Below, one piece after another: positions 5,441 to 50,405 of a stretch of 64,000 nt of DNA. The notes under the pieces are model-generated. The model saw only the letters and a program-made list of their open reading frames with translations, was not told where the DNA came from and did not search any database. Made by a program: the position numbers and the translations under genes. Numbering within the stretch: position 1 is the first letter of the stretch; the number at the start of each line of letters is the position of its first letter. The stretch comes from a virus, in IMG/VR virus record IMGVR_UViG_3300011977_000001; one strand, 5' to 3'.

Positions 5441-5446
5441 TTACCA

Positions 5447-7200: not shown

Positions 7201-7452
7201 TCACAGCTTTGCTACGATCACCGGTTCCCCGGAAGCCCAGCTCACTACGACTCGATTTCCCACTGAGAGTTTGACTCCGGAAGCGGTTGAATAGCCTTTT
7301 CTCGGAATCGTAACCCCCAGTGAATCCATCTTTAGCTTATGACCTGATACTATCACGCCCTGTTCTACGGATACATTGTTGTGGTACGATGCCGTACCAT
7401 GCATCCGCTTTGAAAGAATCTGGGCAAGCCTGGTCGTTCCTTTCGAAACCAT
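7201..7452 (-). CDS. small baseplate protein, XkdR / DUF2577-like
   Basis: 83 aa. GNRVVVSWASGEPVIVAKL at the C-terminus, together with size and position, matches XkdR-type proteins. Confidence 0.55.
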   Translation of the reverse strand: MVSKGTTRLAQILSKRMHGTASYHNNVSVEQGVIVSGHKLKMDSLGVTIPRKGYSTASGVKLSVGNRVVVSWASGEPVIVAKL

Positions 7453-25013: not shown

Positions 25014-25568
25014 TTACTTAGTCCGTTTCTTTTTAGGTCTTGAATTGCCGCCTCTGAGAATGTCATAGACCTGATTGTTGCGTTTCCATGAATCGTCATA
25101 CTTTCTGCCAGCCTGGCGTGTAGTTGCCGTTGTCCCGGTCTTCTTGTTCTGTCTTCTTACTCTCTTCAGGCGGTTTTTCCTCTCTCTTGCGGACTCAACG
25201 GGTTCGCCAGCCTGTGAAAGATGATGTGTACGGGTGTACTGTCTCTGAGCGTCACCTATTTTCTTCGCATTTTTGCGATGATTCTCGTAGACATCAGTTC
25301 CTTCGGCATCATCGTCTACCCTCGTTCCAACCATGCGTACCCCGCTTCCGAGCTTTCCAGTACGAACAACCTCACGGGCGATTGCTCTGTTATGAGCTTT
25401 GCTTGCTCCCGGCTTATACGTAAATGAAACAGCATTCGGTCCAGTTGAGAAGCGGCCAAGTGCATCGTGGAACGGGTTGAACTTTTCAATATCTTTCTCT
25501 TCAACTGCTTTGAAGTCTGCGTCTTTCGATGCAGTCTTCATAATGTCAAAAAACAGTTCAGCCATCAT
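25014..25568 (-). CDS. YNPYHG-tagged basic protein of unknown function
   Basis: Start chosen at MMAELFFDIMK (25568). Tag variant EKFNPFHDALGRFSTG is at 25449-25484. The C-terminal half is R/K-rich. Confidence 0.6.
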   Translation of the reverse strand: MMAELFFDIMKTASKDADFKAVEEKDIEKFNPFHDALGRFSTGPNAVSFTYKPGASKAHNRAIAREVVRTGKLGSGVRMVGTRVDDDAEGTDVYENHRKNAKKIGDAQRQYTRTHHLSQAGEPVESARERKNRLKRVRRQNKKTGTTATTRQAGRKYDDSWKRNNQVYDILRGGNSRPKKKRTK

Positions 25569-33131: not shown

Positions 33132-33235
33132 ATGCTTGCTCCTTTCTGTGCGTCCACCTGCCTTAACTTTATGCATTAGTACGTTTTTCATAAAGGATTC
33201 AGGTCACATTCAACGGGGTACGCATTTGACAGAGC

Positions 33236-35467: not shown

Positions 35468-37216
35468 TCACGTTGTTGCCTTTGAAAGAATTGTTTCCAC
35501 TACTACAGGGCTTATATCGTAATCGCTCACCGGCAGCAGTCTGATCGCTCCACCATTCCACTGTGAAAGTCTCGGCTGTCCCCCTACGCCTCCGATCTCG
35601 CTGACATACTTCTTCACCTCGTCAGCTCCGACAAATGACTTTCCGCTCTGAGGGTCATACAGCCATGTAGTTCCTTTTGATCTCTCGGCTATGATAATGT
35701 GTGCACCAGCGCCGTCTCCCCAGCCAAATTCCATTGTGTATCTCTTACCCTCTTTCAGGGTATTATCCAGGAATCCTGCTGCCTCTTCTGCATCCTTAAA
35801 TGTTGCCGGGCTATGAATGTTCTTCGGTCTATCCTTTGTTCCAGGGATTCGCCATGCCCAGGTTGAATCTTGCGATAGCTGGTCCTGATCATAGTTTCCT
35901 TGCATTCTCGGTTTTGCCTCTACATTGAAGCCTCTTCTTCTAGCTTCATAAGCCAGCACGCAGGTCTGGCAATTATAATGCCTGTAAGTTGAGTTTTCAA
36001 ATCCAGGATTGGCTTTCTGGCTGTTTGCCTGCTCAAATGTCATAGGTTCTCCCTTATGAACTCCTGCTAAGCTCTTCGGGTCTGTAACCCCTGGGCCGCA
36101 GTGAGTACCATCATCCGTGTCAAACCCGTTCTGATGCACTTTCGGGTTGTTCACTCCTCCGACTCCCTCATTGTGTCCCATTCCGACAACCTTCTCTTCT
36201 GCTCCTCCTGTCGTAAATCGGCCGTCTTTACCATGATAAGGGTTGTATTTTCTGATCACAGAATAGTTATGATCATAGCTTTTCTTGATGAATCCTTCTT
36301 CGATTGCTCTTTCTCGGCTTATGATGTCGTTGTCCAAATACTGCTGTAGGTGTTCCGGGTTTTCTTTCAGTTCTTCGACTACCTTATCCTCAAAGGCTCT
36401 TCTGGCTTTTCTCCTTTTCTCCTTATATCCATCAATTTTCTTACGGGCCGTCTCTGCGATCTCTTTGGAAAACGGGTGTGCATTCTTCCCATTCACGCAA
36501 TAATCAGAAATAGCCTCGGCAAAAAGCTCCTGTCCTCCTCCTGTCCGCTCTGCGTATCCGCTAACCGCTTTTCTCAGGTCGGAAATTGACGGAACAGTAC
36601 CACCCGCTTCCTCAATTTTCTTCTTATAGCTGTCGTAAGCCTCCATCATTACATCGTAAGATTCTTCTCCAGCTCTCCATCCATCAGCTATCATAAGGCC
36701 GCCTGCATGTTTCATCTCATACATTGTCTTTTCCAGAACGTGGCCCGCTTCGTGTGCTCCGATAAGTTTCATCGCATCCCCATTTGGATGAAACCCGATT
36801 TTTTGGTCTCCTTCATATGCAGCCTTTATCCTTTCCGGGTTGGAATACCATGAAGAATTAACCGAAATATCTTCCCCTTCTGTTCCTGCATACGCAGCTG
36901 GGCCAAGGGCCATATCATTACCGACACTTATACTTTTTATTTTTCCTGTTAATTCCGGAAATTTATCGATTGCAGCAGCCACTCCGTCAGCAGTGCCCTT
37001 TACAGAGTCAAAATCCAGGCTTTCTATATCTCCGACCATGCGGATTCCGTATTTTTTATCCACTGTATTGGCCAACTGCTTTGCAGTTTTACATCCAGCC
37101 ACTTGGCTTTTCCTGCTCCTTACCGTTTTAGCCGCACTTCCTCCGGACGTAAATTTTCCATCTTTACCATGGTAAGGATTATACTTTTTGATCTGTTCGA
37201 ATGTCTGTGCTCTCAT
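35468..37216 (-). CDS. two-module tagged effector: HExxH metallopeptidase-like domain + papain/transglutaminase-like Cys-His-Asp domain
   Basis: 582 aa with tags at 37151-37186 and 36215-36250. Module 1 has GAHEAGHVLE and ELFAEAISD. Module 2 has YNCQTCVLAYE (Cys), GAHIIIAE (His) and YDPQSG (Asp). Confidence 0.65.
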   Translation of the reverse strand: MRAQTFEQIKKYNPYHGKDGKFTSGGSAAKTVRSRKSQVAGCKTAKQLANTVDKKYGIRMVGDIESLDFDSVKGTADGVAAAIDKFPELTGKIKSISVGNDMALGPAAYAGTEGEDISVNSSWYSNPERIKAAYEGDQKIGFHPNGDAMKLIGAHEAGHVLEKTMYEMKHAGGLMIADGWRAGEESYDVMMEAYDSYKKKIEEAGGTVPSISDLRKAVSGYAERTGGGQELFAEAISDYCVNGKNAHPFSKEIAETARKKIDGYKEKRRKARRAFEDKVVEELKENPEHLQQYLDNDIISRERAIEEGFIKKSYDHNYSVIRKYNPYHGKDGRFTTGGAEEKVVGMGHNEGVGGVNNPKVHQNGFDTDDGTHCGPGVTDPKSLAGVHKGEPMTFEQANSQKANPGFENSTYRHYNCQTCVLAYEARRRGFNVEAKPRMQGNYDQDQLSQDSTWAWRIPGTKDRPKNIHSPATFKDAEEAAGFLDNTLKEGKRYTMEFGWGDGAGAHIIIAERSKGTTWLYDPQSGKSFVGADEVKKYVSEIGGVGGQPRLSQWNGGAIRLLPVSDYDISPVVVETILSKATT

Positions 37217-37440: not shown

Positions 37441-37659
37441 TCTTTACCTGTTCTTGGTAAAAGGCTATGCTGTTATGGATGCTGTGGATTAGTATTTGTT
37501 TCCTACCACCAGATGGTTTCAGAAAGGGTCTGACCACAGCCTCCTGCTACTTTGTTGATCAGTCAGATACCGCATGACGGTTTATGTGGAACGAGGATAC
37601 GAAAGCAGCGAGTCCTTGTGGGTCCAACAGCATCAAATAATCTTACGGAGGTGATCTCT
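37441..37659 (+). ncRNA. candidate IS110 5' non-coding end / bridge-RNA region
   Basis: About 220 nt non-coding stretch directly upstream of the recombinase ATG, the position where IS110-group elements encode their guide (bridge) RNA. No fold was computed. Confidence 0.3.
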
Positions 37660-38838
37660 ATGATCATTGTTGCTGTTGATGTCGCAAAGGATAAGCACGA
37701 CTGCTTTATCACCAACACGGATGGCGAAGTCCTTTATGATTCCTTCGCCATTCAGAACAATCAGGAGGGCTTTGAAGACCTGTATCAGAAGATATGCTCT
37801 GTGACCGATTCCTCACAGAATGTAAAAGTAGGACTGGAAGCGACCGGTCACTACCATCTCAACCTCCTTGGCTATCTCCTTGATAAAGGTTTCCCCACCT
37901 GTCTTATCAACCCGTTACAAACAAGTCTTTTCAGAAAAAGTCTAAGCTTTAGAAAGACGAAAACGGATCCGGTAGACGCCAGAGCGATTGCGAGATTGCT
38001 CATGAGCGATCGGACTTTACAGCCCTACTCGCTCACATCATACCAGAACGAAGAGCTTAAGTCACTAACCCGTTATCGCGCCGATAAAGTCCGTGAACGA
38101 GCAAAGCTGAAATCTTCTCTTTCCAGGCTTGTCGTGATCCTCTTTCCGGAACTGGAGAAACTCGTTCCGACTCTGCATATGCCTACCGTTTATGACCTGC
38201 TCAACGAGTTTCCCGGAGCTTCACACATCGCTTCTGCTCATCTGACCCGGTTATCTCATCTCTTTTCAGAAGCCTCCAAAGGTCATTATGGAAAAGATGA
38301 TGCCATCAGGATCAGAAATGCCGCTCGTCGATCAATCGGCTTGGTCTTGCCTTCTAAATCTCTTGAACTTCAACATACGATCGCCCATATCCGTTTTCTG
38401 GATCGTGAGATCGATGAGATCGAGTCGCAGATCTTTGCTCTTCTGGATAAACATCCGCCGAAGATGCTGGACATCCCGGGCATGGGGCCGCGTATGGCTG
38501 CCGTTATCGTTGCAGAGATCGGAGACTTCAGACGCTTCTCATCACCGGATAAGCTGCTTGCGTACGCTGGTCTTTCTCCGACGACCTACCAGTCCGGACA
38601 GCTGACTTCCACTTATGCCAAAATGGAGAAGCGCGGCTCCAGATATCTTCGTTTCGCATTGTTTAATGCCACGAAATATGTCTGTGTCTGGGATCCGACG
38701 TTTCGTGCCTATCTGGCGAAAAAGCGAGCTGAAGGAAAGCACTATAACGTTGCGGTCTCACATGCGGCGAAAAAGCTCGTCCGTCTGATCTATCATCTGG
38801 AGACGACCGGAGAAACATACGTTTCGAAAGCCTGCTGA
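37660..38838 (+). CDS. IS110-family transposase / recombinase
   Basis: Start chosen at MIIVAVDVAKDKHD (GGAGG RBS at 37647-37651). DEDD-type N-terminal motifs are present (VDVAKDKH, GLEATGHYH). The C-terminal Transposase_20-like motif IPGMGPRMAAVIVAEIGDFRRFSSPDKLLAYAGLSPTTYQSG is also present. Confidence 0.9.
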   Translation: MIIVAVDVAKDKHDCFITNTDGEVLYDSFAIQNNQEGFEDLYQKICSVTDSSQNVKVGLEATGHYHLNLLGYLLDKGFPTCLINPLQTSLFRKSLSFRKTKTDPVDARAIARLLMSDRTLQPYSLTSYQNEELKSLTRYRADKVRERAKLKSSLSRLVVILFPELEKLVPTLHMPTVYDLLNEFPGASHIASAHLTRLSHLFSEASKGHYGKDDAIRIRNAARRSIGLVLPSKSLELQHTIAHIRFLDREIDEIESQIFALLDKHPPKMLDIPGMGPRMAAVIVAEIGDFRRFSSPDKLLAYAGLSPTTYQSGQLTSTYAKMEKRGSRYLRFALFNATKYVCVWDPTFRAYLAKKRAEGKHYNVAVSHAAKKLVRLIYHLETTGETYVSKAC

Positions 38839-39198: not shown

Positions 39199-39351
39199 TT
39201 ATTCCTGATCGTCCTGATCATCCTGATCATCGTCTTTCTGTGCTCTCTTCGCATCATACTTTTCCAGGAACTCTCCGATTGCGTCAGAAATGGACTTTGC
39301 ATCCGCTCCCTGCGTCATCGTGATCGGAATCCTCTTTCCACTTTTCTCCAT
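39199..39351 (-). CDS. small acidic protein (50 aa)
   Basis: Hand-translated as MEKSGKRIPITMTQGADAKSISDAIGEFLEKYDAKRAQKDDDQDDQDDQE. It starts 13 nt after the stop of the 39364-39879 gene. It is below the ORF-track cutoff. Confidence 0.4.
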   Translation of the reverse strand: MEKSGKRIPITMTQGADAKSISDAIGEFLEKYDAKRAQKDDDQDDQDDQE

Positions 39352-39363
39352 CGTATCTCTCCT

Positions 39364-39879
39364 TTACTGCGGAGGCAGATTGCTCCCCGTTCCACCCGTG
39401 GAAATATTTTCAGCGTTTCCAATATCCCAGATAGCCTTTTCATTATGCTCTCTTGCATAATCGATTGCCGCATTCTTGTCGGACATGCAGGTCGAAATAT
39501 CCAGGCTGATCATACCGGTATCCGGGTCCAGCCATGTTCCGAGATAATTGTCCTTCTGGGACAACAGATCCGCATTGTCTTTCATGAACTTTCTGATTGC
39601 TGCCTCTCTGGTATCCGGATCCCTGGCCTCTTTTGCACTAATCCACCTGCTGCGGTCTGCGTGAGCCGCAACCATGTATCCGCTCTTCGGTTCTTTTCCG
39701 GTCTTTACATGCACAGACATTCCGCCCTGGCGCATAGTGTGATTGGAAATTCCACCCACTACAGTCCCATATGTGAATCTTCCTCTCGCATCGTGATTTG
39801 TATTGTATTTTTCAACATCTTCAAAGTCCTTGTCCCGTGAGGACATGCTCTTTCTAATGTCAAAGAATAGCTTTACCAT
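39364..39879 (-). CDS. YNPYHG-tagged protein of unknown function
   Basis: 171 aa. The N-terminus is MVKLFFDIRKS...VEKYNTNHDARGRFTYG (tag at 39775-39810). Confidence 0.6.
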   Translation of the reverse strand: MVKLFFDIRKSMSSRDKDFEDVEKYNTNHDARGRFTYGTVVGGISNHTMRQGGMSVHVKTGKEPKSGYMVAAHADRSRWISAKEARDPDTREAAIRKFMKDNADLLSQKDNYLGTWLDPDTGMISLDISTCMSDKNAAIDYAREHNEKAIWDIGNAENISTGGTGSNLPPQ

Positions 39880-39967
39880 GATTCCTCTCCTTTCAGTAGA
39901 TTTACTGTTATCTCGAATGTAACTGCTCTTCTGCTGAAAGTTAAGGCTTCAGGTCAACAAATCCATG

Positions 39968-40423
39968 TTATGCGGTTCTCCGGTTTCTGTTACTGATCTC
40001 GTTCAGGAATCTCAGGGCTTTGTAGTATTTCATCATCCGTTCCCCGTCTTTCACTGTGAAGTGAATGATCCTTGACCGGTCCATATTGTGCCTCAGGTCG
40101 GCCATCTTTACTTTGACGGCCAACGGGTTTTTACTCAGTTTCTCGACATATACCATGTAGGGCTCACTTTTATCGTGAGTCATCGCTTTGATCGCCGATA
40201 GCTGTTTCTCAGTAAATCCCGCTTCTCTAAGATTATCAATCGTGATTGCAGTGTCCTCAACCACATCATGAAGCAATGCTACCACACAGCTGTCTTCATC
40301 ATTCATCTGCTCAGCCACATGAACCGGATGCATGATATAGGGCATTCCAGCTTTATCAGTCTGACCATCGTGTGCCCTATATGCTATCTGCATCGCTTTT
40401 CTGGTAAGATCCGTGTATACCAA
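39968..40423 (-). CDS. small alarmone hydrolase (SpoT/RelA-type HD domain)
   Basis: 151 aa. Motifs AHDGQTDKAGMPYIMHPVHVAE, ALLHDVVEDT and KMADLRHNM match the (p)ppGpp hydrolase HD signature. No tag. Confidence 0.85.
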   Translation of the reverse strand: MVYTDLTRKAMQIAYRAHDGQTDKAGMPYIMHPVHVAEQMNDEDSCVVALLHDVVEDTAITIDNLREAGFTEKQLSAIKAMTHDKSEPYMVYVEKLSKNPLAVKVKMADLRHNMDRSRIIHFTVKDGERMMKYYKALRFLNEISNRNRRTA

Positions 40424-40439
40424 TACTCAGCATCCTTCC

Positions 40440-40667
40440 TCAGGCTTTGAAATATTTCGCTTTCATCCTCGCTTTAAGCTCGATCGCCTGATCTTTTGTC
40501 AGCTCGTCATAGTAAGTCGTGTCATACGGTGCCTCAAATGCATTTTCAGTGTCTTTCCACTCGTCAGAGCCAGCTGCATAGAACTGCCCGATATTGTTTT
40601 CCTGATCGAGTCGGTACAGGGTTTCGTAGTCGCCGGCATCAATGTCGATTCTACCGAAGTACCTCAT
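40440..40667 (-). CDS. small hypothetical protein
   Basis: 75-aa ORF between the toxSAS-like and SAH genes. Confidence 0.5.
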   Translation of the reverse strand: MRYFGRIDIDAGDYETLYRLDQENNIGQFYAAGSDEWKDTENAFEAPYDTTYYDELTKDQAIELKARMKAKYFKA

Positions 40668-40715
40668 GTTCGTTCCTCCTTTCCTTCTTTAGGATATACC
40701 TATATATGTATATTG

Positions 40716-41624
40716 TCAACGCCTATAATCGTAGGGAAGTGTCTTGTCATAGTACATATAGTACGGAGAATCCGACTTTTTAACGGCCAGGTCGTCAAAA
40801 GGCTTGATCGCATCAATGTCCTTCGGTGTCGGAATTGATCTGGCGTTCTCACTCATCTGCTTTTTCAGCTGCTTCTTCCGCTCCGGTGGGGTATCATCTT
40901 TGCGTTCTTCTTCGTACATGACGTGGTTTACTTCTTTTACTTCAAGAGACTTCTTTGTATGGAACTGAAGCTCGAATCTTGTACCATCCTTTGTCTCAAT
41001 GACACAGTTCACGCCTCTGTAATCAGCGTTAGTATCACCCAGGGTATTCTTGACACGTTTTACCTTATATCCCTTTGCTTCAAATCGTCTTTTTGTCTCC
41101 ATGAAAGTTGCCGTAAGATGCTCTTCGTCATCCATCACTGTATAACGGTTAATATCATACATCCTCTTAACCGCTTCATCCGGATGCACATCTCGATTCT
41201 TTTTATCGCTCTGTTCCTTACACTCCGTAACGAGTTTTCTGGTTAGCGATTTTTCAGTCTTGAGTCTAAAATCACGGTCGGCAAGCTCGCTCCCGGTAAT
41301 ATCAGCGATCTCATCCAGGTCATTTGTGATCTGTTTCTCTGCTTTACTCGCTTTCGCTACGGCCGCTTTCGCTGTTGCAGCCGCCTCTCTGTGCAGTTTC
41401 TTTCCCTCCGGGCTGTTATCATCCATTGAGCTTGATATTGTATGCCCAGATGAACTTCCAGAGCTGCCTGCTGAGGCTCCTGCTCCGCTGGTCCCGCCTT
41501 TGTACGGAACTGTAGTCTTGGATCCCCCACCCGTGGTAAATCTTCCGTCTTTACCATGATAGGGATTATACTTTTCAACTTTATTATCTATGCCATTTCT
41601 TATTTCACTAAATACTTTCGCCAT
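40716..41624 (-). CDS. YNPYHG-tagged RelA/SpoT-homologue nucleotide pyrophosphokinase (toxSAS-like)
   Basis: 302 aa with the tag at 41538-41573. Synthetase-fold motifs are present: RLKTEKSLTRKL, YDINRYTVM, ADYRGVNCVIETKDGTRFELQFHT and NHVMYEEER. Confidence 0.75.
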   Translation of the reverse strand: MAKVFSEIRNGIDNKVEKYNPYHGKDGRFTTGGGSKTTVPYKGGTSGAGASAGSSGSSSGHTISSSMDDNSPEGKKLHREAAATAKAAVAKASKAEKQITNDLDEIADITGSELADRDFRLKTEKSLTRKLVTECKEQSDKKNRDVHPDEAVKRMYDINRYTVMDDEEHLTATFMETKRRFEAKGYKVKRVKNTLGDTNADYRGVNCVIETKDGTRFELQFHTKKSLEVKEVNHVMYEEERKDDTPPERKKQLKKQMSENARSIPTPKDIDAIKPFDDLAVKKSDSPYYMYYDKTLPYDYRR

Positions 41625-41647
41625 ATCGGTGCCCTCCGTTATATCAA

Positions 41648-41673
41648 ATCATATCGAAGCGCACAGATGTGAG
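41648..41673 (-). promoter_or_regulatory. palindromic motif + -10-like hexamer
   Basis: The - sense reads CTCACATCTGTGCGC, then TTCGA, then TATGAT, upstream of the 41624 start. Confidence 0.4.
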
Positions 41674-41711
41674 CAATTATCCAGGTCCTGTTTTACAGAT
41701 GTTTTTCGCCA

Positions 41712-41951
41712 TCAAGGTGATAATACTTTCCATTTTTTCAAAAAGCCTTCCATGGAATAATACGGGCAGGGCAGCTCACCGTGGCTACCAAACCAGATTG
41801 CCGATCTTCCCAGATATTCCACTATCCATGTTCTAAGTTCATACACAGTACCGTGGATGTAATGTTCCCCCAGGCCAGTTACAAGAGACTGTCCCGATAT
41901 ATTTTGCTTTCGTCTCTCAGTTCTCCTTCTGGACTTTTTCTGAGCAACCAT
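41712..41951 (-). CDS. possible small basic protein
   Basis: 79-aa ORF with a weak RBS. It overlaps the 3' end of the RHH gene by 35 nt. Confidence 0.3.
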   Translation of the reverse strand: MVAQKKSRRRTERRKQNISGQSLVTGLGEHYIHGTVYELRTWIVEYLGRSAIWFGSHGELPCPYYSMEGFLKKWKVLSP

Positions 41952-42165
41952 CAGCTTCTGCAGTTATCTTCTCCTCCACATCTCTCATGACCGTGCTGGT
42001 GATATATCCGTTCACTGATTTGTTTTCAATAGCAGCAGCAGCCCTGATTTTGTCCTTCTCACCTTTTTTGAATAGAACTAGGATGCGATCGTAGGCTTTT
42101 TGATCATACTTCCTAGATGCCCTCATTTGGGCCTCTGAAACCGGCATAGTTTCCTCTCCTTTCAT
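41917..42165 (-). CDS. Arc/ribbon-helix-helix-like small DNA-binding protein
   Basis: 82 aa. MPVSEAQMRASRKYDQKAYDRILVLFKKGEKDKIRAAAAIENKSVNGYI fits the Arc/RHH pattern common in Firmicutes antitoxins and regulators. Confidence 0.5.
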   Translation of the reverse strand: MKGEETMPVSEAQMRASRKYDQKAYDRILVLFKKGEKDKIRAAAAIENKSVNGYITSTVMRDVEEKITAEADGCSEKVQKEN

Positions 42166-42255
42166 GAAATTTTGTTCTCATAATATACCTATATCGGTAT
42201 ATGTTTCAAGTATAGAAAAACACCACACGGTCTCTTCAACCATGTGGTGTTCTCA

Positions 42256-42534
42256 TTACGATTTGAAGTTTTTCCAGGCTTCTTCGTGATACACGTCCAA
42301 TCCTTCATCGTCTGTCTCATACTCAACCGGTGAGAATGCAGCCTTCGGATTGATCTTCCGATACCTGGCAAGCTCTTTCTGCATGTTCTGATACACAAAC
42401 AGCTCGCCCTCATTCAGCTCCGGTTTGATCTGATCTGGTGTCATGTCATCATTCACAGCCAGAATCAGCTGGTTCCAGCGTCTTCCGTTGATCTGATGAA
42501 TGAGCTCTCTCTGACGATTTGTTCTCTCAACCAT
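42256..42534 (-). CDS. small hypothetical protein
   Basis: 92-aa ORF starting 13 nt after the zeta-like gene stop. Confidence 0.5.
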   Translation of the reverse strand: MVERTNRQRELIHQINGRRWNQLILAVNDDMTPDQIKPELNEGELFVYQNMQKELARYRKINPKAAFSPVEYETDDEGLDVYHEEAWKNFKS

Positions 42535-42546
42535 GCAGTTCCTCCC

Positions 42547-43476
42547 TTAGTTTGCTTTATTCAGGAACTCTTCGAACTTTTTCTCCTGGCCCGGAACCGG
42601 CGTGAATCCTTTTCCCTTGCCTCCAGCAGCAATTAGGACCGGCTTTGAGCCTATCGGGCCATTATTGTCGTACAGTTCTGCCTTATCAAACAGATGTGCA
42701 ACCTGTACTCCGATCGATGTTACTTTCGGGTGGCACTCCCTGAGAAAGTCGTCTGGGACCAGTCGTGGGCTCTCTCCCTTCTTCATTGCGGACAGATACC
42801 TGCTGACGTTTCTCTTAGACGCTTCATCCGTATTTACTGTAACATATTCCGCCTCAGTTCGGTAGCCGTGTTCTTTTGCTACTTTCAGCTTAGCCATAAC
42901 ACTTTCAACGCTCCCGTCTCCGGTTCCATCGTAAGTGATATTGTAGTGTTCATCTGCTGCCACTTTCAGCAATCTTTTGGCGATCATTGAGCTCTCTTCG
43001 TGATAGAATGCTGCTGCTCTATCCGTTTTCTTTGACATAGCTTTGAACCCTGGAAGCATTTCTTTGATCACATCCGGGTCTATCCTGACTGAAGTGGCTG
43101 GGTCCATCTTAGAAACGAATCCATCTTTGATGACTCGTCCTTTTCCGGATGCCGGCCCGCCGCCCATCATTCGGTAAACTCCCTGTCCAGTTGTTGGTTT
43201 GAGTCCTTTCAGATACTGTCTGATAATTCTCTTATGCAATTCTTCCCGCTTAGGATCTATCTTACCATCAGCAGTGATATGACCGCTCATAGAGTTCTTG
43301 AATCCAGTCCTCTGCTCAGCCAGGACATCAGTCGGGTCGGACGAGTGATAGTCTCTATGCACAGCTTTCGCTGAAGTAGTAAATCTTCCGTCTGCACCAT
43401 GATAGTGATTGTACTTCTTAATCTCTTCAAACGTGCGTGAGCTCTTCATACTCTTCTTGATATATCCTTCCTTCAC
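42547..43476 (-). CDS. YNPYHG-tagged P-loop kinase, zeta-toxin-like
   Basis: GTG start at 43476 or ATG at 43449. The tag EEIKKYNHYHGADGRFTT is at 43381-43416. Walker A is GGGPASGKG, followed by a FYHEESSMIAKRLL region as in the zeta/AAA_33 family. Confidence 0.55.
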   Translation of the reverse strand: MKEGYIKKSMKSSRTFEEIKKYNHYHGADGRFTTSAKAVHRDYHSSDPTDVLAEQRTGFKNSMSGHITADGKIDPKREELHKRIIRQYLKGLKPTTGQGVYRMMGGGPASGKGRVIKDGFVSKMDPATSVRIDPDVIKEMLPGFKAMSKKTDRAAAFYHEESSMIAKRLLKVAADEHYNITYDGTGDGSVESVMAKLKVAKEHGYRTEAEYVTVNTDEASKRNVSRYLSAMKKGESPRLVPDDFLRECHPKVTSIGVQVAHLFDKAELYDNNGPIGSKPVLIAAGGKGKGFTPVPGQEKKFEEFLNKAN

Positions 43477-43544
43477 TGCTCTTTCCCGTGATATGGATTG
43501 TGCTTTCTTATCTCATCCAGCGTTTTCACCATGAATCCCCTATT

Positions 43545-44318
43545 TTACTTAGAATACTCAACCCAGCACCTGCAATTTGCTTTATTTTTCATGCTGGCTC
43601 TTGGGTCGCACGGATACCGCAGCAGTTCCCCTCCGACATTGAAATACTCGTTAAGTTTTCTCAGTTGTCCTGCTGCCTGTTCATGTGCCTCTCTGACCTT
43701 TTCATCCTCGCAGGTATGCCAGATTTTATACTTCATCCCGGTCCTGGAAGCGTCAATATCTTCCGAATCAGCATTGATCTCTGAAGATTCCTCTACTCCG
43801 ATTCCGTATGCTCTTCGGTCTGAGAACGTGTAGCCATCCAGGTCGTACCCAGACTGTTCAAGCATTCGTTCCGTTGAGCCGATGATCATTTCCGGGAAGA
43901 GGAATGCCATTTCCCCGATAATCGGTGCATCAACTTTATATCTCTTGTGTGCTATCTCGATGTAACCATCAGATAACCACTTGAAAAGTTTCAGCATGTC
44001 AAAGTTCTGAGTCTTGATCTGCTTCTTGTATTCCCTGAAGAATTTTGTGACGACATGAAACATATCAAAAGCATCATGTGCTCGATTCTGCTTCTGCCAC
44101 TTTTTGATTCCCATCGGAGCGAACCATCGCATGAAGTCTGCATAAGACAGTTTCTTCTCAAAATTCACGAAATCCGCTTTGACTATTTCAGGAAGCTCTT
44201 CGCTCATCGTGTAATTTCTATCAGGCGATACTGATGAAGCAGCTCCGCTTCCGGTAAACTTCCCATCTTTCCCGTGATAAGGATTATACTTTTTGATTTC
44301 GTTAAATGTTTTCGCCAT
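43545..44318 (-). CDS. YNPYHG-tagged MuF / SPP1 gp7-family head morphogenesis domain protein
   Basis: Start chosen at MAKTFNEIKKYNPYHGKDGKF (AGGAGA RBS). The C-terminus CEDEKVREAHEQAAGQ...NCRCWVEY matches the MuF signature (D..vR..H...G ... nCRC). Confidence 0.65.
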   Translation of the reverse strand: MAKTFNEIKKYNPYHGKDGKFTGSGAASSVSPDRNYTMSEELPEIVKADFVNFEKKLSYADFMRWFAPMGIKKWQKQNRAHDAFDMFHVVTKFFREYKKQIKTQNFDMLKLFKWLSDGYIEIAHKRYKVDAPIIGEMAFLFPEMIIGSTERMLEQSGYDLDGYTFSDRRAYGIGVEESSEINADSEDIDASRTGMKYKIWHTCEDEKVREAHEQAAGQLRKLNEYFNVGGELLRYPCDPRASMKNKANCRCWVEYSK

Positions 44319-44457
44319 GACGTTCTCCTGCATCAATCTCATTGATCAATCACGATCAGTGTACTCGACAACCATCCAATCTTTCATGACTGTGTTCTCG
44401 AATGTATACGGAGTATTCATTCTTCTCTCCTGCTGCTTAAAGCAAAGTTTTCTATCC

Positions 44458-44742
44458 TTACTCAGCTGATTCACCATTGTTCAGGTACTTTGATAATCTG
44501 TTCTGACCTGATACATTCATCTGAACATTGAATTTCTTCATAGCTCGCTTTATGTTTCTTGCCAGCTCCGCCTCGTATTTCGGTGAAACATAATTGAACA
44601 TAACCACTGCAGATCGCACATGCTGTGCATCGTTCAGCGGGTATTTTCTCAGCTCCGGGATTCCGAATGTTTTCTCCGAAAAGTTGTCTCTTTGCTCCTG
44701 AGTCAAAACCTTCTTCTTGATCTCATTGAAAAGTTTAACCAT
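44458..44742 (-). CDS. hypothetical protein sharing only the MxKLFxEIKK start of the tagged family
   Basis: 94 aa. It begins MVKLFNEIKKK but lacks the YNPYHG core. Confidence 0.5.
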   Translation of the reverse strand: MVKLFNEIKKKVLTQEQRDNFSEKTFGIPELRKYPLNDAQHVRSAVVMFNYVSPKYEAELARNIKRAMKKFNVQMNVSGQNRLSKYLNNGESAE

Positions 44743-45898
44743 CGTTTTTCCCCCTCATGAACCTCTGGATCCTGTGAATAGCCACTCTTCTGATTTCTTT
44801 TGAAAGAGGCTTAGCATTTTCACCATTTGCGATGCAGTCACCGAATGCTTCTGCAAGCGCTTCGCTATAAGACCTCCCAGAATACCCACTTATTTCCTCA
44901 ATGTGATGCTTTTCCCTTTGTTTATTTCCGCTCTTTTTTTCGATGTTTCTGATCGCCGTTCTGACTACGTTCTGGGCCTCCTGGTGCCGTTTAGTCATAG
45001 CAGTCCCCTTAGCATAGTGCGGAATGTCAGGATTGAGTTCTGTCAAAACATATTCGATATGATGTCCAGCTTCATGAGCTGCAACGCTTTCTGCCGAAGA
45101 GTTTGAATGCCACCATCCTTTTTCGGAATTGTTTTGACAAGATTCTTTTATATGCCCACCTGTTCCATAGAAATCCGGGTTTAGTATTATGTTTCCATGC
45201 TCAAACATTCCAGGAACGTATGTGTCATCCGGAATCTCATACTTAAATGCATGTCTCATATTGACATTATAGAGTTTGGTGCTTCGATGCATCTGGATTG
45301 GCTCACACTCGCTAATTACGGTAGTTATTCCGGTCATAGCAGCTTTGCCAGCTTCCAGGTCAATACCGTCCATTCCTTTAGCAAAATCAATTCCGTACTT
45401 TTGTTGAACGTACTCTTTTAATTCTGCAACACTTTTGCATTTGCTTATATCATGATCAGTATTAAGTTTTGGAGGCATATACCCATCAGGCACATCTTCA
45501 AAGTCTGTAGATTCATCAAGTTCACGCTGAATCTGCGCTTCTCTTTCAGCTTCTAGCTTTTCTTGTTTTTTCTGTTCTTCTTCCCATCTATCCTCTCTTT
45601 GCTTGCGTTCTTCCTCATCTTGTTTGATAGCAGTATCAACTTTTCTGTCAAAATCCGGGTCGTTCTGATCGATTCCATAGAAAAATTCATATAGCCATCG
45701 GTCCTCGTCACTATACTTGCTCTCTTTTGTTGAGCTAGAAGCGGGCCCTGCGTTTGTTGATCTGGTGTCCGTAGCTGAGCTTCTTTCTAACTTTGGTTTT
45801 TCGTCTGCAGTCATTCCGCCTGGGGCAAAGCCAAAACGTCCACCCTTCTGCCTAGGATAGGGATTCGATTTACGGATTTCGTAAAAAAGTTTCGCCAT
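44735..45898 (-). CDS. HExxH metallopeptidase-like protein with degenerate tag
   Basis: Start chosen at MAKLFYEIRKSNPYPRQKGGRFGFAPGG (GAGGGAGA RBS). It carries AAHEAGHHIE and EALAEAFGD, making it a paralog of the 33933 and 35468 peptidase-like domains. Confidence 0.6.
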   Translation of the reverse strand: MAKLFYEIRKSNPYPRQKGGRFGFAPGGMTADEKPKLERSSATDTRSTNAGPASSSTKESKYSDEDRWLYEFFYGIDQNDPDFDRKVDTAIKQDEEERKQREDRWEEEQKKQEKLEAEREAQIQRELDESTDFEDVPDGYMPPKLNTDHDISKCKSVAELKEYVQQKYGIDFAKGMDGIDLEAGKAAMTGITTVISECEPIQMHRSTKLYNVNMRHAFKYEIPDDTYVPGMFEHGNIILNPDFYGTGGHIKESCQNNSEKGWWHSNSSAESVAAHEAGHHIEYVLTELNPDIPHYAKGTAMTKRHQEAQNVVRTAIRNIEKKSGNKQREKHHIEEISGYSGRSYSEALAEAFGDCIANGENAKPLSKEIRRVAIHRIQRFMRGKNDG

Positions 45899-46469
45899 CG
45901 TTCTCCCTCTCTTTCTTTTCGTGCACAATCACCCAGTCTTCCGCAAGAACATCTTCTATCTCGGCCATCCATCCGATGCCAAGTGAACCGTCCTCTTCCC
46001 GGATAATGAAATAGCCTCTGATCTCGATACGGCCGTTCTTGTCAATGCTCCTTGTTCCCCTAAGTCGGTTCCGGTACTCCTGGCTCAGCTCTGCGAAAAA
46101 GATTTTTTTGTTTGGCATGTAAAATACAAAGACACCATTAGGCCAGGCTTCCCTGGTGATTTTGTATCCTTCACGCATCCTAGCAGTTGCTTCACCGAAG
46201 TTCATGCAGTTTCCTTTGCCGGCCAGGATTCTTGCTGTATAGTCAGCATCATTAGAAAGCCGCATCAGGGAGACACGAAGATACCTGCTAAGGCTTCTCG
46301 GTACCTCCTTGTGGATTGACAGACTGATCAGTCTTTTTGCTGTATCAAAGTCTGAGATGTGCGTATGTCCTTCTTTGAACTCTTTTTCAGTGTTCCAGAC
46401 AATGTAACCATCACGGACTTTTTGGACCGCAAATTTATCTTTCTGGTAGACAGTTCTGATCTCGTTCAC
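45870..46469 (-). CDS. hypothetical protein with C-terminal DUF2829 (Tad2-like) domain
   Basis: 199 aa. The C-terminal half MNFGEATARMREGYKITREAWPNGVFVFYMP ... GWMAEIEDVLAEDWVIV fits the DUF2829 pattern (M.FgeAl..lk.G.k..R.gW...; DlLAeDWei at the end). Confidence 0.55.
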   Translation of the reverse strand: MNEIRTVYQKDKFAVQKVRDGYIVWNTEKEFKEGHTHISDFDTAKRLISLSIHKEVPRSLSRYLRVSLMRLSNDADYTARILAGKGNCMNFGEATARMREGYKITREAWPNGVFVFYMPNKKIFFAELSQEYRNRLRGTRSIDKNGRIEIRGYFIIREEDGSLGIGWMAEIEDVLAEDWVIVHEKKERENDGETFLRNP

Positions 46470-48169
46470 TCGCCATCAGCCTCTTTCTTCTCTTCGGTTT
46501 TTACCGGTGGCGTTCCCGCTGCTGCATTGACATGTTCCTTTATGCCGTTTCTACGCTGCTGCGGCTTTTCCATCTTGTCAGTTTGCTTCTCTGGCTTCGT
46601 ATTTGCCGCTTCTACACGTTTTTCAGCATTTTCATGTTCTGCTCTAGCTTCAGCTGATTTTCGGCTCGGCGTGCCGTCTAGGACGGTCTGGCCATCAGGT
46701 GACAGTTTGTGGTTTCGGTCAATAGACTGCAAGTATTCCTCAGCCCGTTCCTCATTTATTCCGATTCCTTCCAGCATCTGTTTTGTCAGGTCTCTTGGGA
46801 ACTCTCCTCGTATGTACTTGCTCAGTGCCGACTGAATCTTGTACATAGTCGCTGACTCTGATTTTTCATCCACTGGTGTCTGGTCTTGAGGGTCTCCCTC
46901 ACCATCAGGCTGCTCTGTAGCAACTTTTTCTGGAAGTCCACCGATCTGTCTCACATAACGCTCCAGTTCCGGGTCCGGTGTGATCACGCCTGCATCGATC
47001 ATTCCTTTCAGGAAGTTTGCGAATGCTGTCAAGTCTGGCTTCTCAATATCAGTGTGAGTCATCTTCGGATAGTCGGTGATACCATCAAATGCATGTCCGT
47101 TAATATCGATCAGTCTTCGGATTCCCTGGTTGTTGAAAGCCTCACAAATCGTATCCAGATAGGTTCCAACTGCCAGTGCGAACATAGCCGTTTTGCTATC
47201 AGCCAAAGCAAACGATCCAACAGAGTTCTGCCCCAGGAGTACAAAGTCTGCCAGGACCGATGTGGCAATCTCTTTGTGGTATCGATCAATGATCTGGTTT
47301 GTATCGAACTGCCTCCTGCTGCCTGACGTAAGGAGCTGAAGTTGCCATCCATTCGGGAGAACCAGTCCTTCACGCTCATCTCTACGAATACCGGAAACGA
47401 TTGACTGTGCACGGGCAAGCATCCGTTTCATATCCTGGTCACTATCGTCCCAAATGTCTACATCTGCCGGTGCTGTCAGTGTTGGAAAACCAGCCAGGTC
47501 TCTCTCGATACCGATTCCTTCAATCTCTTCAATTCTTTTCACGAAATACCATGCCCGGTATGCGCTTCGAAGAATTGATCTTCCCTCAGGATTTGCTTTG
47601 ACGGATTTTGTCGTAAAGTGAAGGGCTTTATCGATCGGAATCAGGACCTGTGTATAATTTGGCGGAGCACTCTGGACCATTCCAAGCAGCTTATCGGAAT
47701 TTTCTTCATATCTCCACTCGTAGAAAGTGTCCTGAGAACGTATCGGTAGCTTCTTCCAGCCAATCAGACCATCATTGTATTTTGAGCTCAGTCCGACATC
47801 CTTCTTCTTTCCACGTCTCAGCTTATAAACGATCTCATGATAAGACCATCCGTATGTGAGAAAGCTCAAAATTTCCGAAAGTGTATCCTGCCAGGTATAT
47901 TCCATGTCATTCATGCACTGTTCGACAAATTCTGCAGCCTTCTTGTCAATGTCTTTGTCACCGCCTGGAACGACCATGAACTTACACTGCCGAATCAACA
48001 TCTCGATTGCATATAGAATGCCGCCTACCACGGCATCGTTGTTCGACATTTCTTTGTAAGCCTCAACGCCCCTCAGACCATGAAGTTCTGGTACGAACTC
48101 CTCATAGAATATTCCGTTGTAGAATCGCTTTTGCCCGAGTCGCCCGTATTCGGCACCGATTTTTGCCAT
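46466..48169 (-). CDS. portal protein (Mu gp29 / DUF935-like)
   Basis: 567 aa immediately downstream of TerL. The N-terminal region EEFVPELHGLRGVEAYKEMSNNDAVVGGILYAIEMLI resembles DUF935 portals. Confidence 0.8.
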   Translation of the reverse strand: MAKIGAEYGRLGQKRFYNGIFYEEFVPELHGLRGVEAYKEMSNNDAVVGGILYAIEMLIRQCKFMVVPGGDKDIDKKAAEFVEQCMNDMEYTWQDTLSEILSFLTYGWSYHEIVYKLRRGKKKDVGLSSKYNDGLIGWKKLPIRSQDTFYEWRYEENSDKLLGMVQSAPPNYTQVLIPIDKALHFTTKSVKANPEGRSILRSAYRAWYFVKRIEEIEGIGIERDLAGFPTLTAPADVDIWDDSDQDMKRMLARAQSIVSGIRRDEREGLVLPNGWQLQLLTSGSRRQFDTNQIIDRYHKEIATSVLADFVLLGQNSVGSFALADSKTAMFALAVGTYLDTICEAFNNQGIRRLIDINGHAFDGITDYPKMTHTDIEKPDLTAFANFLKGMIDAGVITPDPELERYVRQIGGLPEKVATEQPDGEGDPQDQTPVDEKSESATMYKIQSALSKYIRGEFPRDLTKQMLEGIGINEERAEEYLQSIDRNHKLSPDGQTVLDGTPSRKSAEARAEHENAEKRVEAANTKPEKQTDKMEKPQQRRNGIKEHVNAAAGTPPVKTEEKKEADGE

Positions 48170-48185: not shown

Positions 48186-49643
48186 TTATCTCCAATAACT
48201 CATCTTCATGTTTCCAGGTTCCTCCGGTGGTGCGGAAGAAGTGTTTGCTTTTTCAAGCTCTGAGAAAGCTGAAGAACTAGCATCCACCATGTCCTTCCAT
48301 TTCCCGTCTGGGAATCCTTCGAGCTGTGCAAAATACATTTCATTCCATTCGCCGGCAATTATCTCGACATTTCCAGCCTGCCATTGGGCTGCATACGGCT
48401 CCGCTCTTGTGACCTTATCGCCTGACTCACGCTCCACTGCCACGGAGAATCCTGCCAACATCTTGATAAAGTTTGCTGCCTGGTCTTTTCCTGCCTGTCC
48501 CGGGTCCTGAGGAAGTCTTACCTTTACCTTGTGTTTGAATCGTTTTTTGTCGATAATTGCCGTATTATGTATCAGTCTCCGCACTTCATCTGCGGAATAC
48601 TGCTTATTGACCACATCAGCGACAACATATTTCCCGTTTTTGCGCTTTCCCATCAGGACACCAGCTGTGTAAGCTGCCTCCCCGTTCTCGTCTTTCTCGG
48701 TTGCTGCTAGGTCCCAGCCCCTTACCCATCTGACCACATCATCCGGGATTTGATCGATTACTGTGATCTGCGATCTCTTGAACATCAGGCCGGCAGCAGG
48801 ACGTATCAGCCAGTTTCCCTTTAACAGTCGTTCTCTCTCGACCAATCCCAGGGCCTGAAGATTCGTCAAGTACATCGGGTTCTGCTTTAGCAGCTCTTTG
48901 TTGTCGTAAATAGAAGAAGCTATAAAAGTGAAGGACAAGATGAAATTGTCCAGACCATACCGGATCCCCTGGCTTTCAAATTCATGTTTTGTAGCCTCAT
49001 ATGTTTCCATTACTCCTGGCTGTTTGAGAATTTCTTCCCTGGTATCACCCCAGACAAGTTCCTCATTCACTCTAGCGAAATATCGTATTTTCCCGCTTCT
49101 CTCCGGAATCGCATATCCGGTCTTCGGGTCCCACCACCATGAGATAAGTTTTGCCACGAACGAATCAGGGTCCGGGTTACATGTTGCTCTCACATATGGC
49201 TTCACTCCACATGTTGATCTGTTTCGGGATAGCATGTACCAAAACTGTCCTTCTGTGAAATGGCAAACCTCATCGAACTCAATCAGACAGATTTCTGCGC
49301 CCTGATAGTCCATTTTTGAGTTTTCCTTCTCCAAGTGTGCAAACATCACATTTGCGCCGCTTTGGAATTTCCAGTTCGGTCTCGGTGTTTTGACTGCTCT
49401 CGCTCCCGGATAAAGGTTGTAAATTCCAAACGATGCGTCCCATATAGAACCAGAGTTCATGACCTGTGCCATCGTTCTTCGGAATATTACGCAGTTGAAT
49501 TTCGGGTTATCTACATGTCTGAGCGGTTCATAGAGGATTGACCATGACTTGCCTCCACCTGCTGCTCCTCCGTAAATCACGATGTCAGCTGGTGACGACA
49601 AGAACTGCTCTTGTGGTCCTGGCTGCGGCTTCAATATCTTCAT
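48186..49643 (-). CDS. terL: terminase large subunit
   Basis: 485 aa with Walker A (YGGAAGGGKS), Walker B-like (CLIEFDEV) and a C-terminal RNaseH-like nuclease half (GWDLAAT...). Confidence 0.9.
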   Translation of the reverse strand: MKILKPQPGPQEQFLSSPADIVIYGGAAGGGKSWSILYEPLRHVDNPKFNCVIFRRTMAQVMNSGSIWDASFGIYNLYPGARAVKTPRPNWKFQSGANVMFAHLEKENSKMDYQGAEICLIEFDEVCHFTEGQFWYMLSRNRSTCGVKPYVRATCNPDPDSFVAKLISWWWDPKTGYAIPERSGKIRYFARVNEELVWGDTREEILKQPGVMETYEATKHEFESQGIRYGLDNFILSFTFIASSIYDNKELLKQNPMYLTNLQALGLVERERLLKGNWLIRPAAGLMFKRSQITVIDQIPDDVVRWVRGWDLAATEKDENGEAAYTAGVLMGKRKNGKYVVADVVNKQYSADEVRRLIHNTAIIDKKRFKHKVKVRLPQDPGQAGKDQAANFIKMLAGFSVAVERESGDKVTRAEPYAAQWQAGNVEIIAGEWNEMYFAQLEGFPDGKWKDMVDASSSAFSELEKANTSSAPPEEPGNMKMSYWR

Positions 49644-49738: not shown

Positions 49739-49888
49739 TTACAGTGACTCGATCAGTTCTTTGAACTCGACTTTCCATTCTTTCACATCCATCTGCATTT
49801 CTGTGCGTTTTTCAGTCGATATAAGCGGATTCTTCTCTGCTTCTTCGAGCCATGAATCGCACATGTCGTAATACATGTGTTTAAGCAT
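49739..49888 (-). CDS. small hypothetical protein
   Basis: Start chosen at MLKHMYYDMC (overlaps the TerS-like stop by 8 nt), giving 49 aa. Confidence 0.4.
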   Translation of the reverse strand: MLKHMYYDMCDSWLEEAEKNPLISTEKRTEMQMDVKEWKVEFKELIESL

Positions 49889-50405
49889 TTTCTTCCGCTC
49901 CGACCTGAATGTTATCGGCATCTTTCTCGTCCCTCCCATTGTCAGGCATATAGAATTTCACTGCCGGTTCGGTCTTTCCACCATCTTTGATCTCAATAGA
50001 ATCTGTCGTGTCTCCTCTGGATAGTCTTTCCAGTTGTGCAGCCACATCCACCATGCGGGTTATGTCTGCTGGTTTCATTGCGCCGTCTGGCAAGTCCTTC
50101 AGTGCTTTTGCCGCTTTCAGCAGCATCGACTCTGCCAGCTTTGTGTGCCTCGACCGCATTTTGGCGATCTCCTGGATGTGTTCTTTCTGGGCCTTCCGGT
50201 CCTGCTCATTGTCCCAGGCTCTCGCTCTTTCATCCCAGTCCCAAGCGTTTGACCATCGATATAAAAGGCTTCCACTCTTTTGTAACCGCTTTGACACCTC
50301 GCTTATCGTTCTCTCGGGCCCCAAATCCCGGAATGTAGCAAACGCTTCGAAACTCTTTGCAGATTCTCCTTTCTGCCTCTCCCACGGCTGTGCCTGTACG
50401 TTCAT
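49881..50405 (-). CDS. terminase small subunit-like HTH protein
   Basis: 174 aa. It has an N-terminal HTH-like segment (SAKSFEAFATFRDLGPERTISEVSKRLQKSGSLLYRWS). Located just upstream of terL. Confidence 0.5.
   Translation of the reverse strand: MNVQAQPWERQKGESAKSFEAFATFRDLGPERTISEVSKRLQKSGSLLYRWSNAWDWDERARAWDNEQDRKAQKEHIQEIAKMRSRHTKLAESMLLKAAKALKDLPDGAMKPADITRMVDVAAQLERLSRGDTTDSIEIKDGGKTEPAVKFYMPDNGRDEKDADNIQVGAEENA

Follow-up and report, generated by a model that had tools for sequence, protein, structure and literature searches.

A tagged Apk2-like alarmone synthetase and its probable immunity genes in a phage head-morphogenesis block

What kind of system is formed by a RelA/SpoT-like synthetase and a small alarmone hydrolase that are encoded close together in a viral genome, and what is to be made of a peptide at the start of the synthetase that recurs in other genes around it? 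These questions are raised by positions 39968-41624 of IMG/VR virus record IMGVR_UViG_3300011977_000001, which was analysed as a stretch of 64,000 nucleotides, hereafter the window. A preliminary reading made from the letters of the DNA (the sequence-only reading) had described the locus as a toxSAS-type toxin carrying a putative virion-loading tag, with an untagged small alarmone hydrolase (SAH) nearby that would protect the producer or reset the infected cell. Here we present a computational analysis in which the region is probably one cassette of a phage polymorphic-toxin array, made up of an Apk2-type toxin, an IapK-like protein and an Aph1-type hydrolase. Judged by sequence and gene order, the trio appears to be the known Apk2tox-IapK-Aph1 module of the phage MuF polymorphic toxins; the new elements would be a tag in place of the MuF fusion, the position of the cassette as one of many in a large array, and an immunity pair with its own apparent promoter.

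The MuF polymorphic toxin family was defined in PMC5576092, and Apk2-IapK-Aph1 modules are known from prophages of Bacteroides caccae, Streptococcus pneumoniae SPNA45, Mannheimia haemolytica and Pasteurella multocida (PMC10083569, PMC12226406). The toxin-immunity trio has thus already been characterised biochemically, and the role of phage-borne MuF toxins in the viral life cycle, including packaging and injection, was stated as unknown in papers of 2023-2025 (including PMC10083569). The locus described here parts the toxin from MuF, and a short conserved peptide common to ~15 cargo modules replaces the fusion. Its features are the following.

40716-41624, minus strand: tagged toxin, a candidate Apk2-type alarmone synthetase of 302 amino acids (aa), with an ATG start and the Shine-Dalgarno (SD) sequence GGAGGG 7 nt upstream
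41505-41624, minus strand: tag region, aa 1-40 of the toxin (MAKVFSEI...EKYNPYHGKDGRFTTGGGSKTTVP), with the core of the tag motif at 41538-41570
40800-41411, minus strand: synthetase (adenosine 3'-pyrophosphokinase-like) domain, aa ~72-275, placed by the syn motifs and the structural model
40691-40719, minus strand: sigma-70-like promoter (TTGACA-17-TATCCT) that overlaps the stop codon of the toxin gene and precedes the immunity pair
40440-40667, minus strand: untagged 75-aa protein, probably of the IapK type, with an ATG start and SD sequence AAGGAGG
39968-40423, minus strand: untagged HD hydrolase of 151 aa, predicted to be of the Aph1 type, with a TTG start and AGGAAGG upstream; its N-terminus, MVYTDLTRKAM, is common to the homologue in the related locus L001

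The coordinates given by the sequence-only reading for these open reading frames (ORFs) were confirmed, all three on the minus strand, and every peptide string that it quoted was found in them.

The synthetase and its two probable immunity proteins

The synthetase fold of the RelA/SpoT homologues (RSH), which had been proposed for 40716-41624, was confirmed at the level of sequence, motifs and structure. The toxin matched PDB entry 8vx3, the exported alarmone synthetase of Streptomyces albidoflavus (SaEAS), in a phmmer search (E = 1e-17), and a profile of 23 homologues did so at E = 2e-39. An AlphaFold2 model of the toxin had pLDDT values above 90 for residues ~60-280, whereas residues 1-57 were disordered and the tag lay below 50. 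With this model, Foldseek returned 8vx3 as the top match (TM 0.82, E = 5e-14), followed by SAS1, RelP, Tas1, CapRel and long Rel/SpoT enzymes, all at E < 1e-3; of these, Tas1 (6ox6) was a fold relative (Foldseek E = 6e-6) with marginal sequence similarity (profile E = 0.14) and CapRel a distant fold match (TM 0.36-0.40, E ~1e-4). All five synthetase motifs are present (syn1 RLKTEKSLTRK, syn2 DINRYT, syn3 YRGVN, syn4 ELQFHT and syn5 HVMYE), including the catalytic Asp of syn2 and Glu of syn4. A check for missing conserved synthetase residues found every catalytic-motif column invariant in the alignment of the 23 homologues; the invariant columns are K122, S126, K130, D157, R160, T162 and Y202, together with N206, E218, Q220, H222, T223, H234 and Y237. 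The Pfam model RelA_SpoT (PF04607) gave no match to the toxin, with nothing at E <= 0.01 and noise alone at E <= 10. This miss is not evidence against the fold, because the same model also fails to match Apk2 from S. pneumoniae phage K13 and from the Mannheimia phage, and it is attributed to the divergence of the clade formed by Apk enzymes and exported alarmone synthetases (EAS).

Sequence relatives of the toxin domain lie chiefly among delivered toxins. Toxin domains at the C-termini of MuF 'head morphogenesis' proteins from S. pneumoniae, Mannheimia and Pasteurella phages are nearer to it by sequence than SaEAS, the MuF-Apk2 domains scoring ~98-103 bits at 33-35% identity versus 68 bits at 27-29% identity for SaEAS. 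BLASTP against the MuF-Apk2 protein of phage K13 gave 33% identity over 209 aa (E = 5e-29), and tblastn reached 128 phage records at 34-35% identity, the top ones from Streptococcus and Mannheimia, with E values of 4e-21 to 2e-20 for the MuF toxin domains of S. pneumoniae and Mannheimia. Furthermore, the C-terminus of PHROG 7625 matches the toxin (E = 1e-28), and in NCBIfam the toxin domain matches the C-terminus of XopAD type III effectors, in agreement with the EAS survey in PMC12691689. Close relatives were sought in GTDB genomes and none was found; a profile search of the same genomes gave 231 loci with a related toxin domain. Of the best 80 of these 231 loci, a single one is tagged and nine are followed by an Aph1-like gene, a count in keeping with the published statement that the presence of aph genes varies.

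The Apk2 toxins to which these MuF domains belong make (p)ppApp only and are toxic in E. coli (PMC10083569, PMC12226406), the restriction to (p)ppApp having been demonstrated for Apk2 of S. pneumoniae and Mannheimia (PMC12226406), and the Apk signature has been given as RYT in syn2, GxN in syn3 and YH in syn4, as against AVR, SxH and IR in RSH enzymes (PMC12226406). The window toxin carries the Apk-type NRYT, GVN and FH, with Phe replacing Tyr in the last of these. From these comparisons we infer that it is an Apk2-family adenosine 3'-pyrophosphokinase, and infer its product and its toxicity likewise. The protein runs from the N-terminal tag through a disordered Gly/Ser-rich linker and the RelA/SpoT-fold synthetase domain to a short C-terminal tail. 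Pfam and PHROG find no MuF domain in its 302 residues, and its N-terminus consists of tag and linker; it is Apk2tox-like but has no MuF fusion, because MuF is encoded by a separate gene (43545-44342).

The untagged gene at 39968-40423, which the sequence-only reading had recognised as an HD hydrolase, matches Pfam HD_4 and PHROG 990. Its best solved relative is PDB 7smg, the Aph1 '(p)ppApp hydrolase' of B. caccae (E = 2e-31), with which 139 of its 151 residues align without a gap (7smg residues 6-144), the Rel, SpoT and Mesh1 hydrolases following far behind; the HD metal-binding motif is H52-D53 in LLHDVVED. The signature residues of Aph1 are D24, R96, D116, R119, K133 and Y134, of which D24 and R119 set the (p)ppApp specificity, and mutating these two lets Aph1 hydrolyse ppGpp (PMC10083569). 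In the window hydrolase the corresponding residues are D23, K95, D115, R118, K132 and Y133, so that five of the six are identical, the one change (R96 to K) is conservative and both specificity determinants are retained. Also, the hydrolase is 44.5-45.5% identical to listed HD genes of S. pneumoniae phages, several of which are among the Apk2 toxin matches as well. The gene is therefore predicted to encode an Aph1-type (p)ppApp hydrolase that would serve as an enzymatic immunity protein, and that it would neutralise the synthetase is well supported by precedent. Because the linked hydrolase is of the Aph1 type, the relevant product of the toxin is expected to be (p)ppApp, and we regard this predicted hydrolase as the strongest indirect evidence for that product.

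An enzyme without (p)ppApp specificity, which would also make (p)ppGpp as SaEAS does or pyrophosphorylate tRNA as CapRel and FaRel2 do, is unlikely on this evidence. In its favour, the closest structure is that of the promiscuous SaEAS, which shares the RYT/GxN/FH motifs, and relatives of SaEAS among the exported synthetases make (p)ppGpp alone (PMC12691689). Since they do so, the motifs of the toxin do not by themselves fix its product, and these observations weigh against an assignment to (p)ppApp. The bit scores given above, however, place the toxin nearer to MuF-Apk2 than to SaEAS, and the linked hydrolase keeps the determinants equivalent to D24 and R119; since ppGpp is no substrate of Aph1 enzymes, this hydrolase would give no cover against a toxin making (p)ppGpp. 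We therefore consider (p)ppGpp or pyrophosphorylated tRNA the less likely products.

The gene between toxin and hydrolase, 40440-40667, had been named by the sequence-only reading as a possible rescuer from toxicity and no more; the comparisons made here go further, and suggest that it is probably an IapK homologue, that is, an immunity protein that would block the toxin at its active site. An ORF of 68-75 aa directly follows the toxin in the window and in the related loci L001, L002/L003 and L004, and iapK ORFs of 68-72 aa occupy the same place in phages K13, Mannheimia vB_MhS_1152AP2, Javan452 and Pmp13. Relatives of the 75-aa protein are few, with eight found by word search and 14 representatives by an exhaustive hidden Markov model search. 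An hhalign comparison of 18 window-type with four IapK sequences gave a probability of 86% (E = 5e-6, 44 columns), this value having climbed from 18% through 48% as sequences were added, and the two groups have the motif W...[FY][DE]E[IL][ST]E.[DE]A in common. Several results weigh against the assignment. The likeness to IapK is at profile level only; the model of the 75-aa protein gave nothing at E < 0.25 against PDB folds, where Tis1 (the immunity chain of 6ox6) was not listed; and a fold search of BFVD returned weak matches, none of them significant. The five models of the protein disagree with one another, the best having a pLDDT of 92. Additionally, a PDB sequence search yielded spurious matches to designed TIM barrels alone, and tblastn against phages found no IapK.

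The order of tagged toxin, 68-75-aa ORF and HD gene is repeated in the three related loci, L001, L002/L003 and L004, all from metagenomic phages, at toxin identities of 40-57%, and the trio always lies between the portal/MuF and the scaffold/capsid genes. With the Apk2-IapK-Aph1 modules the window cassette shares a homologous toxin domain with Apk-type syn motifs (33-35% identity), the order of toxin, ~70-aa protein and ~140-150-aa HD hydrolase, the conserved Aph1 signature, and the portal-to-capsid location in a (pro)phage. It differs from them in that the toxin has a ~25-aa tag and a Gly/Ser linker and no MuF fusion, with a tagged MuF gene 2 kb upstream; in being one cassette of a ~20-kb tagged array; in having an intergenic sigma-70-like promoter, unlike phage K13, where toxin and iapK abut; and in a small protein that is IapK-like in profile comparison. 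SaEAS, the closest solved structure, has the same motif variants, and the EAS family (PMC12691689) shares the theme of an alarmone synthetase domain on a delivery module. Unlike SaEAS, the window protein has no signal peptide-like N-terminus, is accompanied by two immunity genes and lies in a phage head module. The Tas1/Apk1-Tis1 system, built around a type VI secretion system (T6SS) effector of Pseudomonas aeruginosa (PDB 6ox6), contains a fold relative of the window toxin but uses PAAR/T6SS delivery and has no hydrolase.

The tag and its setting among head genes

The cassette appears, from the genes on either side, to sit in the late head-morphogenesis and structural block of a contractile-tailed (pro)phage. 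The minus strand holds nearly all genes of the window, and their order is small terminase, large terminase, portal, MuF, ~20 kb of tag-bearing ORFs, prohead protease, major capsid, sheath and tape measure. The positions are as follows, the genes without further comment being placed by PHROG and Pfam scans.

49881-50405: small terminase
48186-49643: large terminase
46466-48169: portal
43545-44342, minus strand: stand-alone MuF-like head protein with the tag at its start; Pfam Phage_Mu_F matches aa 183-261, below the curated cutoff, and several PHROG head-morphogenesis families match as well
23966-24892, minus strand: fused 2H-phosphoesterase/XkdF prohead protease (XkdF, Peptidase_S78_2)
20840-21859: major head protein
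16797-18203: sheath
9976-15438: tape measure

The toxin begins with a tag, as the sequence-only reading had noticed, and this tag recurs within the window. In the toxin it reads KYNPYHGKDGRFT (aa 19-29), and the regular expression [YFW]N..H(3-5)G[RKQ][FWY] has 15 matches in the window, all in minus-strand coding frames and none in other frames, where a rough estimate from amino-acid frequencies gives ~0.03 matches expected by chance. The consensus of the tag is K[YF]NP[YN]H[GD]xxG[RK]F, with a longer form of ~25 residues, AKxFxEI...K[YF]NP[YN]H[GD]xxG[RK]F[TS]. Besides the toxin, at least 13 other effector modules of the window, and MuF as well, begin with or carry this ~25-residue disordered peptide. 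The 75-aa protein and the hydrolase have no tag, and no immunity protein carries it. The residues K, N, H, G and F are constant in all 15 copies, and synonymous positions vary freely, which argues that selection acts on the peptide; a mere DNA-level recombination repeat was considered and rejected on the same ground.

Tagged proteins are also found beyond the window. A strict DNA pattern located the tag in 29 IMG/VR stretches, and in larger IMG/VR proteins it lies 10-90 residues after Portal_Mu, MuF or XkdF-protease domains, with C-terminal domains such as a zeta toxin behind it. Among homologues of the toxin, the tag always stands directly before the toxin domain, and what lies upstream of it is nothing, an XkdF protease or another N-terminal domain; in L002 an XkdF-type prohead protease precedes the toxin in one fused protein, and the tag marks the point where the two join. 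The homologous toxin domain has at least four different N-terminal partners, joined to it at the tag. The tag is absent from the Apk2 proteins of K13 and of the Mannheimia phage, and when a profile built from the 15 tags was run in a word-indexed protein search, one 56-aa fragment was returned.

Among GenBank phages the consensus tag occurs in two records only, both times after the portal domain of an annotated portal. One is a 745-aa portal (MW202897.1, 2618-4855), in which the tag lies at ~aa 462-476 and the C-terminal extension of ~270 aa behind it gives a match to DUF3626. In the other, the Nitrososphaera provirus Pro-Nvie1 (FR725450.1), the tag EFNPYHDERGRFASATGATNFSV lies near the portal C-terminus (3001-3087), so that the tag spans bacterial and archaeal viruses. 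The overlapping next gene of Pro-Nvie1 (3176-4019) encodes a canonical RelA_SpoT-domain protein and is followed by a 72-aa ORF. This Rel_Spo-like gene was considered as a close relative of the toxin and rejected, since it is a canonical PF04607 member and the downstream ORF is not IapK-like.

How might such a cassette work? The Apk2-family toxin would move pyrophosphate from ATP to the 3'-OH of ATP or ADP, giving (p)ppApp and AMP, and this synthesis would drain the adenylate pool and halt growth. The IapK-like protein would block the toxin at its active site, and the Aph1-type hydrolase would turn (p)ppApp back into ATP or ADP. The toxin would be produced together with the head proteins; the tag would recruit it into the procapsid, mark it for processing there, or both; and at the next infection the toxin would exit together with the DNA. 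The immunity pair, untagged and expressed from its own sigma-70-type promoter, would shield the producer and lysogens and may also reset the newly infected cell. Such an export model fits the position in the head module, the occurrence of the tag near portal, MuF and prohead-protease domains, and the conserved promoter before the immunity pair. That the tag would load the toxin into virions is suggested circumstantially by the restriction of the tag to head modules, the domains that adjoin it, its disorder and the selection on the peptide. Polyvalent proteins and packaged phage effectors likewise occur as arrays or fusions of effector domains (RelA/SpoT, zeta, ADP-ribosyltransferase, 2H, deamidase) with MuF or portal and are thought to be injected with the DNA (PMC5512222). 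Unlike these, the window has a tag motif for which a literal search of the paper library gave no match and that, in the tagged proteins scanned, corresponds to no Pfam or NCBIfam family.

Tentatively, and with rather less than even confidence, we propose that the tag is a portable capsid-loading and/or processing signal for separately encoded toxins without a MuF fusion, and that untagged immunity genes with their own promoter would decide whether a cell is reset or killed. A second possibility, which we hold with similar reserve, is that the tag is not a loading signal and serves instead at junctions or in processing, for example as a site where the prohead protease cuts cargo free of anchor domains, or as a module boundary along which cassettes are shuffled; packaging, if any, would then depend on another feature. 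Its spacing 10-90 residues behind XkdF-protease, MuF and Portal_Mu domains in fused proteins suits such a role, as do its place after the portal domain in the two GenBank portals and the joining of one toxin domain to at least four partners at the tag. Furthermore, the 1732-aa protein of 27993-33191 contains six tags, which cut it into pieces of 180-340 aa, the size of stand-alone tagged proteins; six copies in one polyprotein favour a per-module function such as cleavage. These internal tags, and those that follow head-resident domains, fit processing or a junction at least as well as they fit loading, and so weigh against a loading signal pure and simple. On the other side, the lack of conservation at synonymous sites argues that the tag is not merely a recombination handle in the DNA, and in stand-alone tagged proteins the tag is preceded by only ~10-25 residues, so that cleavage would remove little.

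The capsid-loading and processing readings are not mutually exclusive. The capsid-targeting sequence of T4, which directs a protein to the capsid and is then cleaved, and the protease targeting tail of HK97 are comparison cases for cargo-directing peptides, and a dual role like that of the T4 sequence would suit both readings. If the tag is a loading or processing signal, it offers a simple experimental handle on the packaging question, and the cargo of uncultured gut phages could be listed from sequence alone. In that event one phage lineage would pack a whole arsenal, comprising a (p)ppApp synthetase, a zeta kinase, a glutamine deamidase and others, and the untagged immunity genes on incoming DNA or in a lysogen would decide between reset and killing of the recipient.

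An apparent promoter before the immunity pair and a polymorphism in the toxin

The promoter-like site that overlaps the toxin stop codon has counterparts at the same place in the related loci. The sequence is TTGACA-17-TATAAT, a perfect consensus, in L001 (6881-6909), TTGACT-17-TATAAT in L004 (~6801-6829) and TTTACA-17-TATATT in L002 (~7302-7330), the L004 and L002 sites being unrelated at the DNA level; a further locus, L012, has a promoter identical to that of the window. These sites suggest that the iapK-like and aph1-like genes may be transcribed independently of the late operon, which would suit a role in protecting lysogens and/or expression early on, from the incoming DNA. Two points weigh against this: the -10 hexamer of the window, TATCCT, is weaker than that of L001, and promoter-like matches in the region are not above chance overall. 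Because such sites are not enriched regionally, the argument rests on conserved position. The conserved promoter offers a testable idea on the timing of immunity relative to toxin delivery. Similar promoter-like sites were also seen before the small ORFs that follow the zeta-toxin gene (42689-42661 and 42209-42182).

An apparent promoter of their own for the immunity genes would also suit a conventional toxSAS module, of the FaRel/ATfaRel or CapRel type, that serves in addiction or abortive infection, acts in the lysogen only and has no use for the tag. We consider this very improbable. SAH-type antitoxins for toxSAS toxins are established (PMC10083569), CapRel is among the fold matches, and these systems resemble the window cassette in pairing a toxin of the RelA/SpoT fold with a small alarmone hydrolase able to remove what it makes. 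The toxSAS-SAH pairs are, however, stand-alone toxin-antitoxin or defence operons that act in the cell encoding them and come from other RSH subfamilies, whereas the nearest relatives here are delivered polymorphic toxins in a virion-assembly context. The nearest relatives of the toxin are all of the delivered or polymorphic kind (MuF-Apk2, SaEAS, the XopAD C-terminus and an actinobacterial form with a long N-terminus), and the CapRel match is distant. Moreover, the toxin lies in the late head block with no terminator-like site found on the minus strand between 38800 and 44800, and a row of toxin cassettes, zeta and glutamine-deamidase ones among them, bears the same tag. The toxSAS/SAH label of the sequence-only reading is thus apt for the synthetase and hydrolase folds and too generic for the system, the closest counterpart being Apk2-IapK-Aph1 with its two immunity proteins.

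One residue of the toxin sets the window copy apart. Codon 116 (window 41277-41279) encodes Asp, where all the more distant homologues (22 of the 23 aligned sequences), the K13 and Mannheimia Apk2 proteins and SaEAS have Gly, a difference that weighs against a fully active toxin and by which the Asp allele may attenuate it. In the cluster at 90% identity, D116 occurs on 42 contigs (the window and four other variants) and G116 on 59 contigs (seven variants); since both alleles are common, D116 is a real polymorphism and not an error. That the window copy is an attenuated or inactive toxin riding along in the array seems improbable to us. This residue speaks for it, and so does an IS110-family transposase on the opposite strand ~1.1 kb downstream of the trio, which indicates that the array is not pristine. 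Against it stand the intact residues of the catalytic motifs, the frequency of the Asp allele, and the two immunity genes, both of them intact and conserved.

Neighbouring genes of the array

Other members of the array, and the element that interrupts it, are the following.

42547-43476, minus strand: tagged zeta-toxin kinase (Pfam Zeta_toxin, E = 1e-22), adjoining the cassette
42256-42534 and 41917-42165: small untagged ORFs after the zeta-toxin kinase, the latter with a weak TacA-like match by Pfam
37552-38838, plus strand: IS110-family transposase, identified by inspection, which interrupts the tagged array
35468-37216: glutamine deamidase/zincin protein with two tags
27993-33191, minus strand: 1732-aa protein with six tags, for which Pfam gives a weak YCII match alone

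Megablast of 39300-45000 against GenBank phages gave no match. In L004, the Apk2-like cassette has beside it a fusion of XkdF protease and ADP-ribosyltransferase (2976-5987), followed by a 48-aa ORF and an ADP-ribosylglycohydrolase, a neighbour that by analogy appears to follow the Bxa-Bsi-BAH pattern (PMC11699363).

Several further observations were made along the array. The next cassette downstream of the trio consists of a tagged 171-aa protein (39364-39879, minus strand; PHROG 17808) and a 50-aa acidic ORF (39199-39351, minus strand), and may be another toxin-immunity pair. The six-tag protein of 27993-33191 resembles a string of tagged cassettes, its tags splitting it into pieces of ~180-340 aa. 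A ThyX-like (Thy1) protein (25558-26547, minus strand) lies inside the effector array between the tagged ORFs 26544-27545 and 25014-25649. Finally, the N-terminal domain fused to the XkdF protease of 23966-24892 resembles 2H phosphoesterases and 2'-5' RNA ligases, and a similar protease fusion in the IMG/VR locus L034 shows a weak match to the anti-CBASS protein Acb1, followed by the tag and a further domain.

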